Assembly: GCA_047615875.1 (NCBI GenBank)
Contig: JBLHGU010000004.1
Location: 4,955-68,954, forward strand
Reading direction: 5' to 3'
Length of the DNA stretch: 64,000 bases
DNA from: Parasphingorhabdus sp.
GTDB taxonomy: Bacteria; Pseudomonadota; Gammaproteobacteria; Arenicellales; CAJQKF01
This document shows positions 54,001 through 63,000 of the stretch, piece by piece; positions within the stretch are counted from its first letter, which is position 1; every line of letters starts with the position of its first letter. A program made the position numbers.

Positions 54001-57000
54001 TGAAACGCCAGGGGTTGTTCAAACTTAAGCTCCATCTGTCGAATATCGTTCATAGCGGTCGAAATAAGCTCTAATATGTTACTTAATGTCGAATTTTAAT
54101 ATACTATAAATGAAGTCGAAAATCATTCAGCAAAGTCGAATAACGCAATAATCTTATTTGGAGTGTCGAAAATTACTACAAATCTCTGTAGGTTACGAAT
54201 TGATACTCAGCCGACCAACCTACTCAATCCTTAATTGCAGCGCAATAGCCTCGTCAATTCCTGTGACCCCGGGCGTATGATGAACAACTTCGCCGTTTAG
54301 ATTAATTAGTACACTGAAGGGAACAACCGGAATATTTAGACCGCTCATTATGGGCACATTCAATAAATTCGCCAGCCAGATATCAGGCTCAAAGGCCATC
54401 GGTAGAGTTAGTTGGTGTTCTTCGCGATACAGATAAACTGTCTCTATAGTTTCGTTAAAGCCGATATTAACGGCGATAATATCGATGTTGTCACTGTGGT
54501 TCTCGTACAGGGATTGAAGATGGGGCATCTGCGCCATGCACTGTGGGGGCACCAGGTAGCCCAAAATTTGACGTATAGAGGTTTTTCTCGCTGGCCTTCG
54601 ATAGTAATGACGGAACCATCAAGACCTTTCAGTGTTCGAGCTTCGGTCGCCGCTGCGGCCTGGGTTATGCCGATGGTAGATATTAAACAGGCAAGCAGCA
54701 CAATTAGAACCAGCAGGTGTTTGTTCTGATATTTCATGTGGGAAATTAACCTTGGATTTATAGTGTGGCTGAAAGATGTGATCGATCGGTAGCAATTTGC
54801 ACACAGTCTTGCAGGCTGCGACAACGGCAACTCATCATCTCGGCAAGTAAATCATCCATAATCTGCAGGCTCTTGATACGTGCTTGAACCTCGCAGCGTT
54901 TTTCCTTTACCAGAGGCGCAAACAAGCCTTTATCGACGGGCTTGTCCAGGGCATTCTCCAGCAATACACGAATCTCTTTGTTAGTGAATCCTGCCGCCTG
55001 GGATAGCTGCACAAATTGAATAGCGGTTATTACATCACTGGAGAATACCCGTTTTCCGGAGATCCGGGGCGGCGCCTGAATAAGGCCGGTTTTTTCGTAG
55101 TAACGAATCTTGGATATGGATAGGCCAAGCTTGTTGGTGACATCGCCGATCTTCATAATTCTGTGCCGATTGTGATCAGAAAATTCATTGTAGTACCTGA
55201 ATCAAGGTCGAGGTCAAGCCGAAATGGTGGTATTTCCTTTTGGTAACTTGCTATGCACAAGACGGACTTTAGCGCTCTGATATCCCATTTTAAGAGGATT
55301 TGATGCCATTGTGCGTTGTTTCATAGTCGGCGATTTCGTAGAATCCGACCCGGGTTGAATATTATGCCAACAGAGAACTTATTATGAATGAATGTCCAGT
55401 ATGCGGCGCCGAAGTAGCGATCAGTGCTGATGTGGTAAAAGGCGAACTACTCGAGTGTAGTGATTGTGGGACCGAATTAGAGGTCATTGGGGTGGAACCG
55501 GTTAAATTACAGGAAGCACCTGAGGCGGAAGAAGATTGGGGACAGTGAAAGTAGGGTTTCTAAGCTCGCTAATCCGGCGCGAAGAAAAGTTCTTAATTAC
55601 CTCGTTTAACGAGCATCCCCAGGTTGAGCTGGTGATGCTGGATGATCGGGAGCTGATTTTTGACTTGAAGAATCGCCCCAATGTGGATATCGTCGTCGAG
55701 CGCAGTATTAATCACTCCAGAGCATTACATGCCTTAAGATTGTTTAAGAGCCTCGGAATAACTTGTGTCAATTCCTACGATGTGGCGAATGTTTGCGGCG
55801 ACAAAATCCTTACCGCCGTTGCTCTGCAAGATGCCGGTGTCCCACAGCCTGAGGTCAGAATCGCCTTCACTGAGCAGTCAGCGCTGAAGGCAATAGAAGA
55901 GATTGGCTATCCGGTCGTGCTAAAGCCGGCGGTCGGGTCCTGGGGTCGGTTGCTGTCGAAAATTAACGATCGAGACGCAGCAGAGACCATTCTGGAGCAT
56001 AAAACTGTGCTGGGTAGCTACCATCACTCGATATTTTTTATCCAGAAGTATGTCGCCAAGAAGGGTCGGGATATTCGGGCATTTGTCGTTGGTGACGAGT
56101 GTATTGCCGCAATCTACCGTTCTTCGGAACATTGGATTACCAATACCGCGAGGGGTGCTACAGCTAGTAATTGCCCGCTAACCCCTGAGCTTTCAGAAAT
56201 ATGTGTGTCGGCAGCCAAGGCTGTGGGCGGCGGTGTGCTGGCCATCGACCTGTTTGAAAGTGATGATGGCTTATTGGTTAACGAAGTTAACTACACCATG
56301 GAATTTAGAAATAGCATTGATACGACCGGTGTTGATATTCCCGGCCGTGTTATCGATTATGTAGTACAGCAGGGCCTGGCCCAATTGTAAGGTCAGCGAG
56401 GCCAAATGATTAAAATTTCCATAGTTGGTGGCAGTGGCTATAGCGGCGGAGAATTACTGCGTCTGTTACTTGACCATCCCGGTGTCTCAATTCAGCAGGT
56501 AACCTCCGAGCGCTTCGCTGGTAAGCCGGTACACAGAATCCATCCGAATTTGCGCAAGCGTTGCCAGCTGAAGTTCTCGTCTATCGACGATTTGCAATCC
56601 TGCGATTTCCTGTTTTTGTGTCTTCCCCACGGCAAGGCCATGACTGAAATTGATCGTTTTCGAAAATTAGCCCCATCGATGATTGATTTAAGCGGTGATT
56701 TCCGTCTGCAGAGCGCTGAATTATTCGAGAAATGGTATGGCGAACCGCATAGCCGCCCTGAGTTGTTAACGGATTTTATCTATGGGATACCTGAGATAAA
56801 TCGCTCTGCCATTCAAAGTGCCAATTTGGTAACCGGTGCAGGCTGCAATGCCACGGCCACCATCCTGGCATTGCGGCCGTTGTTTAAACGCGGACTGGTA
56901 GAGCAGGCTGTAGTTGAAGTGAAAGCAGGGTCTAGTGAGGGTGGTAACAGTTTTAGTGAGGCCAGCCATCATCCGGAACGAAGTGGTGCGGTAAGATCTT

Positions 57001-60000: not shown

Positions 60001-63000
60001 CCGCCTCTGGTTATCACAGAGTCTCAAATTGCTCGGGTAAGGGATGCGTTGGTAGAGGTGTTAGGCGAGTTTGCTGTTGGCTAATCACCCATCCTAAGTT
60101 ACTTCGGCGTCTTCTATAAAAAGGTAGACAAAATGATTTAGAAGAGAGGTTACTGATACATGCCAGGAACTCACTACTCATAAACTACATCCAATTATTT
60201 ATAAAATTGTGAAAAACGAAGTGCTCGTGCAGGTGGTTAATGTAACTGCACATGACTACCGGAGAAAATGAGATGAAAGATTATAGAATTGCTAAATCAC
60301 AGGTTGATGTATCAATAGGAGAATCAGTTCGCATCATTAGAGAACTTCAGGAAATGAGTCAAAATGAACTTGCTAAGGCAACCGGAATTCCTCAATCAAC
60401 GATTTCTGCGATAGAAAATGACCGTATCAATTTGGGTGTCGAACGAGCTAAGCAACTCGCTAGAGCATTACAGTGTCATCCATCTGTTTTGGTTTTTCCG
60501 GGCTGGAAAGTTGTACACGAAAAAGCGGCGTAACCAGAAAAAGCGAGAAACTAAGTAAGGATTTACATCCAAAGTTCTGGCGGTTAACAATATCCGTAGG
60601 ATGGGTGAAACCCATCAATATTTAGAAGGTCTGCTCTACTTCCTCTACCAAAAGCACGTCTCCAAGTTCCACTTGAAGCAAGACAGAAGCGTAGAATTGA
60701 ACAACGCAAGAATTAGGAATTTCTTCCTTAAATAGTAACTGGCTTGATTAGTCGTTATCCTGGACTATTTGGCACTGGGTTATAAAGTGTGGAGCCAGGA
60801 TCGGTTCAGTTCAATTATGGGCCTGGGGTGCTTCCTATATTCTTTTTGAAATCATGAATGCCCCTTTCTATATGTATAAAGAGTTATCCCCCTGAATGAG
60901 ATGTTGCTTGCGTTCCAGGGTGTCCTGGAGAAAGTCTTTGCATGCCCTCACCCTGGCGGTTGCGCGTAAGTCGATGTGGTTAAGTAACCAGACTCCCCAT
61001 GTTGATAATTGAATTTTCAGATCGAGTCGTCGCAAAGATGGTTCGGTATCACCGATAAAGCAAGGCATTTTCGAAATCCCAAGGCCGTTCCTGGTTGCCG
61101 TTGCCATGGAGCTAACATCATCAACTCGTAAGATGGCATTTGCATTCTCAAAGTGATCAGTTACCCAGGTTGGATGATCTATCTCACCTCGAAAGAGTAT
61201 GACGTTGACGGGTTCAGATAGGTTATTCAATACTTCTTCGGTTCCATATATCCCATGTCTCAGCTTCATTAACTCACGGCCGACTAAGTATTCGGGCGGG
61301 CAGGCTGTCAGCCGGATTGCGATATCTGCCTCGCGGGCAGCGAGGTCGATCAGGCCTGTCGTCATGAGTAGTTGTAATTCTATTTTTGGATAGGTCTTAA
61401 GAAATTTTCCGATCTCGGGAATAATGAGCCGATCTGCGAGATCGTGAGCCACAGTTAGTTTCAATATGCCTGCAAGGGCTGCATCCTGGTCAGATGTTTT
61501 GTGATCGACCTGCTGTATTTTTTGCTCTAGTTCTAAGACATCATTAAACAGATTTTCCGCGGCCTGGGTCATGGAATAACCGCTTCGGGAGCGATCGAAC
61601 AAACGAGTCCTCATGTGCTGCTCAAGGGCCTGAATGCGGCGTGCAACGGTCGTGTGCTTTACCCCCAACGCTCTACCCGCACCGCTCACGGAACCTTCCC
61701 GCGACAGCGCCAAAAAATATCTCAGGTCATCCCAATTCATTATCAGTATGTGCATAAAAAAATATTAAGTGTGCATTATAAACTATTTATTAATATTTAC
61801 GCACATCTTATATTTACCAAATCGCTTCTTCTGTATCAAATTTTAAACCGGAAGTATCAACATTTATTAACTCAATAATAAAGGTACAAAAAATGTCATC
61901 AACCTACAAATTAACACTTACTGCAAAGTCGCTTGACGATGCTGATCCGAAAGCAAAAGCAATACTAGAGAATACAAAGGCAAAGATGGGGATGATCCCT
62001 AATATGTACAGAACTATGGCTAATTCCCCAGCCATGTTGGAAACATATACGCAAGGCTATTCAAATTTCAGGGAGAACTCCGGTTTCACACCTGCAGAGC
62101 AAGAGATTGTATTTCTAGCTATCAGCCGCGAAAACGAGTGTCACTATTGCATGGCTGCACACAGTTTTGTCGCCGACAATATTTCAATGGTGCCATTCGA
62201 AGTAACCGAAGCTATTCGTAACGATGAACCCATAGCAGATTCGAAACTGTCTGCGCTTCGGGCATTCACCCAGACTATGGTTGTTTCCAGGGGACGTCCA
62301 GGCGGAGACGATGTCGATAAGTTTACCCTTGCGGGTTATTCGGAGAGTCACATCCTTGACATTATTCTAGCGATCTCAGTGAAAACAATTAGTAACTACT
62401 CAAATCACGTGTTTGATACCCCAGTCGATGTGGCATTTGCGGTTCGAGCCTGGGATATTCAAGCAGCAGCTTAATTCATCAACTAAACAAAAAAAGAGAA
62501 TAAAAACTAATGAACTTTAAAAAAAAACTATTTTAGTCACCGGGGCAAACCGTGGAATTGGTCGCCAAATCGTTACATCATTACTCGATAAAGGCGTAGC
62601 AAAAATATATGCTGGTAGCAGAAACCCTGATACTTTTCAGGGCTTTAATGATAATCGAGTTATTCCATTGCAGTTGGATATAACCGTTACTGATCAGATA
62701 AACCAGGCAGCGAAGCTGGCAAATGACGTCGACATACTGATTAACAATGCTGGCGTGGCGGCTTTTGCCAGTTTGCTCGATGGACCTGACGAGTTACTGC
62801 GACGTGACATGGAGACCAATTATTTCGGAACACTGGATATGGTTCGGCACTTTGTCCCAGTGCTTGATACACGGCTCAATGCCGCTATTGTGAATATAGT
62901 TTCGATCGTTGCGTTCGTAAACTTCCCGGTGGTAGGCGGGTATTCAGCATCAAAATCTGCGCTTTTTTCCCTTTCCCAGGGGTTTCGTAATGAGCTATTG

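Follow-up and report, generated by a model that had tools for sequence, protein, structure and literature searches.

Glutamine-ended LysW carriers and a candidate Ntn-type substitute for LysK in a widespread bacterial carrier-protein cassette

The stretch of DNA analysed here, 64 kb of contig JBLHGU010000004.1 deposited under the name Parasphingorhabdus sp. (in the following, the window), carries a compact operon of six genes, in which a small LysW-type amino-group carrier protein is followed by LysX and LysY, by a stand-alone amidohydrolase of the N-terminal nucleophile (Ntn) type with a terminal cysteine, and by LysZ and LysJ. We think that this locus probably makes lysine from alpha-aminoadipate (AAA) on the LysW carrier, and that the Ntn protein releases the finished lysine and also deamidates those carriers that end in Gln. 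To our knowledge, carrier-protein biosynthesis has been regarded as peculiar to Thermus/Deinococcus, to some archaea and to a few natural-product clusters of Streptomyces, and the release enzyme LysK as universal. A fixed cassette with the uncharacterised Ntn protein and no LysK is found in a large, phylum-spanning bacterial clade, which includes marine Gammaproteobacteria (e.g. SUP05 and sponge symbionts), Gemmatimonadota, Ignavibacteriota, Planctomycetota and Acidobacteriota. The pathway as such appears to be ordinary and was partly recognised before; its novelty seems to lie in the displaced release enzyme and in the Gln-capped carriers, both of them widespread. It is the C-terminal Gln of the carrier and the Ntn protein as constant substitute for LysK that make the locus interesting, and both had gone unremarked in an earlier note on this DNA. 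The genes in question are the following:

55384..55548, plus strand: LysW-type amino-group carrier, 54 aa (TIGR01206, PF21344)
55545..56390, plus strand: LysX ATP-grasp ligase, GTG start (TIGR02144, FITNS motif)
56406..57434, plus strand: LysY/ArgC-type reductase (semialdehyde dehydrogenase; TIGR01850)
57456..58133, plus strand: predicted stand-alone Cys-Ntn amidohydrolase of class II glutaminase fold, 225 aa, MCRLL start (AlphaFold2 and Foldseek)
58130..58921, plus strand: LysZ, [LysW]-aminoadipate kinase (NF010659)
58918..60084, plus strand: predicted LysJ-type class III aminotransferase (TIGR00707, operon context)
54758..55156, minus strand: MerR-family regulator, divergent from the operon (PF13411, PF00376, PF09278)

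In all characterised systems known to us, the product is released from the carrier by the M20 metallopeptidase LysK. The control set for the search for such an enzyme consisted of 80 loci around Thermus-type carriers (618 kb), collected by a metagenome scan. In these loci the open reading frame (ORF) after lysJ encodes an M20 protein, one of which passed the [LysW]-lysine hydrolase model NF003367 (418 bits; cutoff 363). The PROSITE patterns for M20 proteins were too weak alone; checked on the control loci, they gave nine matches, located after lysJ where inspected, and BLAST with verified LysK probes was used instead. With eight such probes (blastp and tblastn, E <= 1e-3), neither the window nor any of the Ntn-type loci (L001-L089) gave a match, and the Ntn protein as query gave no match in the 618 kb of control loci. 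Counted over complete cassettes of the Ntn clade, which come from at least seven phyla, the Ntn gene is present in 57 of 57 (one copy is frameshifted) and LysK within approximately 10 kb in none, whereas among complete Thermus-type cassettes LysK is present in 13 of 14, directly 3' of lysJ in most, and the Ntn gene in none of the 14. Moreover, release is the sole step of the pathway that is not otherwise encoded by the cassette, and the linkage of the Ntn gene survives a full change of the gene order, with the Ntn gene last, after lysJ, in two loci (L087 and L088).

The Ntn protein itself has no match in Pfam and a weak one to the EgtC model TIGR03442 (30.8 bits against a cutoff of 218.65). 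Its AlphaFold2 model, computed from an alignment of 48 sequences, reached a pLDDT of 89.2 and a pTM of 0.89 and predicts the four-layer alpha-beta-beta-alpha Ntn fold. Searching the PDB with Foldseek placed EgtC at the top (E 1e-12, TM score 0.67-0.71, approximately 17% identity), followed by the glutaminase domains of PurF and GlmS and by two stand-alone 'class II amidotransferase' proteins of unknown function; the fold matches to EgtC, PurF and GlmS all had a probability of 1.00. In a profile-to-PDB alignment, the motifs GWG, (H)AR(S)A, PF and (F)NG line up with EgtC. Across 161 family members, Cys2, His74-Ala-Arg76 and Asn102-Gly103 are conserved to 94-100% (R76 to 100%, N102-G103 to 99%), and the column of the N-terminal Cys contains Cys in 151 members, gaps in nine, which are probably mis-called starts, and Ser in one. 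The residues that are near-invariant among these members (C2, R3, G36-W37-G38, P56, W58, H74-A75-R76, N89, P91, F101-N102-G103, G114, G117, K120, N155, Y176 and S192) cover the positions that serve class II glutaminases as nucleophile, as carboxylate-binding Arg and as oxyanion-hole Asn-Gly. Judged by motif register, the Asp with which GlmS and PurF bind the alpha-amino group of glutamine ([ST]-D-[ST]-E) would correspond to an invariant I-G117-A-E in the Ntn family, and such an exchange of Asp for Gly117 would fit a substrate in which the alpha-amine of the glutamyl residue is tied up in a peptide bond. The Ntn proteins form a discrete family: among 1.84 billion representatives, it comprises 688 clusters (50% identity) at E <= 1e-3 and 120 at E <= 1e-30.

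Two stretches of the model, residues 81-90 and 111-120 (57696-57725 and 57786-57815), have the lowest confidence, with means of approximately 61-62 over blocks of ten residues and values below 50 at residues 111-113. They hold highly conserved residues, E82-G83-I84 and N88-N89 in the first and G114-R115-I116-G117-A118-E119-K120 in the second, and might form flexible loops that shut over the substrate or over the tail of the carrier. The isoelectric point (pI) and net charge of the Ntn protein were also tried as a proxy for a basic patch for carrier binding, which proved uninformative (pI 6.2; family median 6.45; known partners are mildly acidic as well). Among the conserved basic residues are R3, R80, R115, K120, R127 and R147-R152.

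The second peculiarity concerns the carrier. The window carrier ends in EDWGQ, i.e. its attachment residue is encoded as Gln and not as Glu, whereas LysW of Thermus, Thermococcus and Sulfolobus in the PDB all end in EDWGE. Within 67 close relatives of the window carrier, EDWGQ was found 45 times and EDWGE 18 times; at the species level, loci with the Ntn gene encode Gln in 22 and Glu in 47 cases. Six Gln-ended loci lacked an Ntn match, all of which are cut by a contig end soon after lysW, lysX or lysY. A neighbour-joining tree of concatenated LysX, LysY and Ntn sequences from 67 cassettes has Glu as the ancestral state and at least 12 changes between Glu and Gln, the Gln types being located in Gammaproteobacteria, Ignavibacteriota, Phycisphaerae and Vicinamibacteria. 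The corresponding figures for 91 relatives of the Thermus carrier are 87 Glu, no Gln and four other termini that look frameshifted or erroneous; they come from a protein search, because the metagenome scan for control loci was unusable for the Gln/Glu frequency, as the terminal Glu was part of one of its search patterns.

The ATP-grasp ligase needs a free gamma-carboxylate, for which reason a carrier with terminal Gln should be inactive before its deamidation. The class II glutaminase fold has free glutamine as its ancestral substrate. The repeated appearance of Gln termini only in the Ntn clade is predicted if the Ntn protein is the release enzyme, since a gamma-glutamyl amidase that works via a Cys thioester would deamidate Gln, too. 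Likewise, the frequent encoding of a C-terminal Gln would be explained if the Ntn protein deamidates the carriers to the active Glu form. A strict one-to-one rule, in which a Gln terminus equals the presence of the Ntn gene, was rejected in view of the 47 Ntn-linked cassettes that encode Glu. Since Glu is the encoded terminus in two thirds of the Ntn-linked carriers, the primary role of the Ntn protein cannot be deamidation.

This last point also bears on a different explanation, according to which lysine is freed by an unlinked M20 deacylase (LysK, ArgE or DapE) and the Ntn protein is an accessory deamidase or maturase of the carrier, a proofreader of mis-loaded carriers or a regulator of carrier availability. 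Proteobacteria generally have DapE and often ArgE, which are both homologues of LysK, and LysK need not cluster with the other genes. In addition, the Gln-ended carriers need some deamidase, and the release activity of the Ntn protein is a prediction. However, an accessory deamidase would hardly be expected to be kept in every complete cassette when most of the carriers need no deamidation, and to stay linked through a complete change of gene order. That the cassette encodes all other steps and lacks release alone, and that LysK sits in 13 of the 14 complete control cassettes and in no Ntn-type locus, likewise argues against an unlinked enzyme, and we consider this explanation rather unlikely.

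Returning to the Ntn protein as release enzyme, the pathway could be pictured as follows. With ATP, LysX would link AAA through its amino group to the gamma-carboxyl of the C-terminal residue of the Glu-form carrier, LysZ would phosphorylate the distal carboxyl of the carrier-bound AAA, LysY would convert the resulting carrier-bound aminoadipyl phosphate to the semialdehyde, and LysJ would transaminate the latter to carrier-bound lysine. Cys2 of the Ntn protein, exposed after removal of Met, would then attack the gamma-glutamyl amide bond, whereby lysine leaves, and the carrier-gamma-glutamyl thioester on the Ntn protein would be hydrolysed to give back the free carrier. On a Gln-form carrier, the same enzyme would hydrolyse the side-chain amide, so that ammonia is given off and the carrier is primed as Glu form. 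This proposed release chemistry is that of EgtC and of class II glutaminase domains. Release and deamidation by the Ntn protein are inferred, as is a supply of AAA made elsewhere in the genome.

A bolder and more general version would be that a new Cys-Ntn family of approximately 690 clusters (50% identity) acts on the C-terminal gamma-glutamyl group of carriers, frees lysine, displaced LysK in most mesophilic bacteria with LysW, and activates Gln-ended 'pro-carriers'; in principle, the thioester could also be resolved by an amine, which would amount to ATP-free loading by transamidation. This version we put forward tentatively, with slightly less than even confidence.

Regarding the substrate, the ligases of such pathways differ in a signature of five residues (F182-I192-T203-N258-S259 in Thermus numbering), which reads F-I-T-NS in AAA-specific LysX, I-Y-V-GF in Glu-specific ArgX and Y-I-T-NA in bifunctional enzymes (Shi et al., PMC12998189). 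The window ligase reads F-I-T-NS, as do 76 of 79 aligned ligases, the other three having F-V-T-NS. That the motif discriminates within our dataset can be seen from the single locus with a second ligase paralogue, L080, where this paralogue has the ArgX-like signature I-S-A-GC and argG and argH lie downstream. Furthermore, a gene that resembles homocitrate synthase (HCS) lies between lysW and lysX in 25 loci, mostly of the FCB group (best model TIGR02146, 356 bits, under the cutoff of 413), and between lysY and lysZ in L087 and L088 (242 bits with the same model, also under the cutoff). The genome paper on Caldithrix abyssi read a LysWXZYJ+Hcs locus (Cabys_3146-3153) as Thermus-type lysine biosynthesis (PMC5317091). 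Because of the AAA-type motif, the embedded HCS-like genes and the Caldithrix abyssi locus, the conversion of AAA to lysine is the parsimonious assignment. A search of the 64-kb window for lys, arg and dap genes, homocitrate synthase and LysK beyond the cassette found none, in agreement with the earlier note as to HCS and LysK; since HCS is unlinked to the cassette in lineages outside the FCB group, its lack in the window says little.

From the proteobacterial context and the missing AAA-forming and LysK genes, the earlier note had considered a different substrate, product or release step to be more likely than a housekeeping lysine pathway. The part on release stands, LysK being absent and release possibly different, while the part on substrate and product is not supported in view of the F-I-T-NS signature, the match to NF010659 and the embedded HCS-like genes. 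A different substrate or product, e.g. a non-proteinogenic amino acid that goes into a natural product, such as those built by the AmCP clusters of Streptomyces, could be suspected from the lack of AAA-forming genes in the window and from the combination of an unusual Ntn enzyme with an unusual carrier terminus; also, Gram-negative bacteria normally make their lysine by the diaminopimelate (DAP) route. We judge it to be very unlikely. Besides the AAA-type LysX signature and the HCS-like genes inside sister cassettes, LysZ scores above the equivalog cutoff for [LysW]-aminoadipate kinase, and transketolase, non-ribosomal peptide synthetase, tailoring or export genes are not conserved around the cassette, whose flanks vary by genome. 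A fixed six-gene unit in hundreds of species of many phyla is typical of primary metabolism.

One might also think of an ArgW-type route from glutamate to ornithine for arginine, as it exists in Sulfolobus and haloarchaea. The enzymes are homologous to ArgB, ArgC and ArgD, L080 has argG and argH downstream, and LysZ and LysY of Thermus retain a residual activity on carrier-bound glutamate (PMC12998189). However, the ligase motif is neither that of ArgX nor that of the bifunctional enzymes, the arg genes of L080 go together with its separate ArgX-like paralogue, which the window lacks, and the genes embedded in cassettes are HCS-like and not arg genes. Hence, arginine synthesis at this locus is highly improbable.

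Nevertheless, several points weigh against lysine synthesis from AAA with release by the Ntn protein. The mutual exclusion of Ntn and LysK has a Fisher p of 2e-14, which compares two clades and not independent events. LysK-like M20 enzymes (LysK, ArgE, DapE) elsewhere in the genomes could do the release, and in Thermus itself lysK presumably lies outside the main cluster. The likeness to EgtC is one of fold only, with 17% identity and the model cutoff far off, and the deamidation may be merely a tolerated side reaction. All steps of the pathway in this clade are predictions from sequence. The AAA signature rests on a handful of characterised enzymes, and no AAA-forming genes (for homocitrate synthase, homoaconitase, homoisocitrate dehydrogenase or AAA aminotransferase) were found in the window, nor any in its 82-kb contig, so that a supply of AAA in this organism is presumed. 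Finally, an earlier description elsewhere may exist, given the limited literature coverage. In our search, which left subscription journals mostly outside, neither carriers ending in Gln nor a release enzyme of the Ntn type or similar to amidotransferases turned up in print; GapMind, in a preprint, mentions LysW in passing, and a 'lysW' reported in Gammaproteobacteria is an unrelated NhaC-type transporter of the same name (PMC5584792). As to whether the cluster had already been characterised in relatives, the report on Caldithrix abyssi recognised the lysine locus but mentions neither the Ntn gene nor the absence of LysK nor the carrier terminus (PMC5317091).

The distribution of the cassette is broad. 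Close relatives of the Ntn protein number more than 3,000. Three were looked at, two of them on genome-sized contigs (4.4 Mb and 8.7 Mb), and each is part of the same lysW-lysX-lysY-Ntn-lysZ-lysJ cassette (W-X-Y-N-Z-J) with unrelated flanks. Complete genomes with the cassette include OZ241844.1, OZ241969.1, OZ243941.1, OY282353.1 and OZ244907.1. When species-representative genomes were scanned with an alignment of carriers, 545 relatives were found, and taxonomy and loci were taken from the best 80 of these 545. They include, in the Gammaproteobacteria, Arenicellales, Ca. Poriferihabitaceae, Granulosicoccaceae, SUP05/Thioglobus, Acidiferrobacteraceae and Ectothiorhodospiraceae, and in other lineages Gemmatimonadota, Ignavibacteriota (including Melioribacter), KSB1, Phycisphaerae, Vicinamibacteria, Binatia, Zixibacteria and Calditrichota. 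The neighbourhood survey that the earlier note had called for thus returned a conserved cassette, with the W-X-Y-N-Z-J order in nearly all loci that are not cut by a contig end; its view that the proteobacterial setting is exceptional had to be given up, as the six-gene cassette is present in hundreds of species and many phyla.

Several loci deviate from this pattern. Remote Ntn relatives (109-140 bits to the profile) belong to the rearranged W-X-Y-HCS-Z-J-Ntn cassettes of L087 and L088 (L087:1804-7666 and L088:1781-7666), in which the carrier has 66 aa and the HCS protein has HMGL-like and HCS_D2 domains; upstream of both lies a conserved divergent gene for a 216-aa protein with no match in Pfam or NCBIfam, which could be a regulator. 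In L009, L010, L014 and L028, lysZ and lysJ are located apart, i.e. the cassette is split after the Ntn gene. Two of these loci (L009:12201-12503 and L014:12210-12494) have a 94-100-aa 'ORF' between lysY and the Ntn gene that consists of two near-identical repeats (e.g. ...TPAKAGVH[VI]TDC[AV]QVEY...) and looks like a translated inserted intergenic repeat element rather than a gene. One gammaproteobacterial cassette has a PF06684 gene ('Amino acid synthesis', function unknown) directly 3' of lysJ (L001:10683-11210). The only complete cassette devoid of an Ntn gene is L080 (10253-16545; a metagenome-assembled genome, MAG, of candidate division KSB1, JAJDAF010000039.1), in which the second ATP-grasp ligase takes the slot of the missing Ntn gene and argG and argH follow lysZ; neither Ntn nor LysK is encoded in this locus, which looks like a combined lysine/arginine carrier system. 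In each of three metagenome control loci (L128, L129 and L130), the carrier cluster encodes three paralogues of LysX, the first two of which flank LysK; this suggests several substrates on one carrier.

In the window itself, the six same-strand ORFs have the coordinates and junctions that the earlier note had given. The stop codon of lysW overlaps the start of lysX in GTGA at 55545, and ATGA overlaps join the Ntn gene to lysZ (58130) and lysZ to lysJ (58918); the gaps between lysX and lysY and between lysY and the Ntn gene are 15 and 21 nt. The reading of the small ORF as a LysW-type carrier (MNECPVCGAE...CSDCGTELEV...EAEEDWGQ, a zinc ribbon with C4, C7, C25 and C28 and an acidic tail) was borne out by TIGR01206 (63.1 bits against a curated cutoff of 53.2, E 1.6e-17) and by the Pfam family Zn_ribbon_LysW PF21344 (67.8 bits, cutoff 27); the ORF is conserved in relatives, among which the four Cys are invariant. 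It is not unannotated, as had been thought: the identical protein already bears the name LysW at NCBI and JGI, in a MAG labelled Parasphingorhabdus sp.

Profile searches also upheld the five enzyme assignments and the operon structure. The ligase scores 333.7 bits with TIGR02144 (cutoff 275.6) and aligns with Thermus LysX (3vpd/1uc8) at 306 bits, gap-free over residues 46-273, compared with 175 bits for ArgX. The reductase gene, which keeps the same position in at least 80 loci, reaches 392.4 bits with the argC model TIGR01850 (cutoff 233.6), where LysY and ArgC are indistinguishable with the models used, a LysY-specific one being unavailable. The kinase has 250.4 bits with NF010659 (cutoff 223). 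The aminotransferase has 427.9 bits with TIGR00707 of the argD family (cutoff 410); its top-scoring model is LysJ_Th_th (NF042418) with 434 bits, under the equivalog cutoff of 700, and it is predicted to be LysJ from the operon context.

The divergent MerR gene may control the operon, a linkage to the cassette that holds for this organism only: it adjoins the cassette in L004-L006, which stem from the same organism, and not in L001, L002 or other loci. Rfam models at their gathering thresholds found no lysine riboswitch or other leader RNA upstream of lysW in a search of the whole window, and scans for promoter and terminator consensus sites around the operon found fewer sites than in shuffled sequence and thus no usable boundary signal.

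Upstream of the operon, by approximately 1.3 kb, a 519-aa Fic-domain protein is encoded at 52494-54053 on the minus strand (PF02661 in the L005 annotation), and a thioredoxin-like ORF (54220-54564) lies between the Fic and MerR genes and overlaps an alternative ORF (54444-54830). Downstream, the short-chain dehydrogenase ORF 62668-63237 covers only profile positions 55-190, its N-terminal Rossmann part being missing, and the 69-aa ORF 63429-63638 holds a lone N-terminal domain of glutathione S-transferase; both look like truncated genes or pseudogenes. The window context described before, with Fnr, ccoNOPG and nirK, is present. Fnr (11407-12165) fits the gammaproteobacterial-type model PRK11161 (249.8 bits against 228) and is a poor match to FixK/FnrL. 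Marine osmolyte genes are represented by DmdA, a dimethylsulfoniopropionate (DMSP) demethylase (29918-31093, 542.8 bits against a cutoff of 410), a choline-dehydrogenase-like GMC oxidoreductase (49990-51606) and an ectoine-hydroxylase-like PhyH protein (51603-52397, below cutoff). Taken together, Fnr, ccoNOP with ccoG, the copper nitrite reductase and the DMSP demethylase suggest a marine proteobacterium. Identical carrier and Ntn proteins have been deposited under the Parasphingorhabdus sp. MAG, i.e. as Alphaproteobacteria, and the nearest relatives of the cassette are all MAGs of Gammaproteobacteria; the label is possibly the result of mis-binning.

If the proposed role of the Ntn protein is true, reconstruction tools that require LysK would call the lysine pathway incomplete in the genomes of this clade, and a family now labelled 'hypothetical' or 'class II glutamine amidotransferase' would gain a function. 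It would also exemplify the action of a Cys-Ntn enzyme on an isopeptide that is part of a protein, and the Gln-ended carriers would represent a simple encoded pro-form that requires enzymatic uncapping. The question also arises why a second route to lysine is retained in Gram-negative bacteria, whose cell wall depends on the DAP route. Cultured hosts exist in the clade with Melioribacter roseus, Stygiobacter electus (strain 09-Me, locus L035, with a carrier of the Gln type) and Caldithrix abyssi.

Compared with known systems, the window most resembles the LysW pathway of Thermus thermophilus, with which it shares a zinc-ribbon carrier with EDWG tail, a LysX of approximately 60% identity with the same AAA motif, homologous LysZ, LysY and LysJ, and the same predicted intermediates and product. 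In contrast to Thermus, it lacks LysK and has the Cys-Ntn gene between lysY and lysZ, its attachment residue is Gln, as in about a third of the species in the clade, and the hosts of the clade are mesophilic, mostly uncultured and spread over many phyla rather than belonging to Deinococcus-Thermus or archaea. The locus of Caldithrix abyssi, by its described content, appears to be the same type of cassette with Hcs embedded (PMC5317091), whereas the window cassette is without embedded Hcs. The AmCP natural-product clusters (DADH-type) likewise combine a LysW-type carrier with homologues of LysX, LysZ and LysY, but their starting compound is glutamate, and they contain a transketolase, special aminotransferases and tailoring genes, which are all missing from the window, where the ligase is AAA-type.

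With EgtC (PDB 4zfj, 4zfk, 4zfl), a gamma-glutamyl amide hydrolase of ergothioneine biosynthesis that also binds and was crystallised with free glutamine, the Ntn protein has in common the stand-alone class II glutaminase fold of approximately 225 residues, the N-terminal Cys, the Arg and the Asn-Gly. The predicted substrate is different, namely the gamma-glutamyl-lysine isopeptide or the Gln side chain at the C-terminus of a protein instead of gamma-glutamyl-hercynylcysteine sulfoxide, and the gene stands in a lysine context with no egt genes nearby; by analogy, the Ntn protein would work like EgtC without being a member of the EgtC family. With LysK (M20, NF003367) it would share the reaction, hydrolysis of the bond between carrier-gamma-Glu and alpha-N-lysine, and the same slot in the operon logic. 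Yet LysK is a dinuclear metallopeptidase and the Ntn protein would act via a Cys-Ntn thioester; their folds are unrelated, their sequences have no similarity, and in the cassettes examined the two are mutually exclusive.

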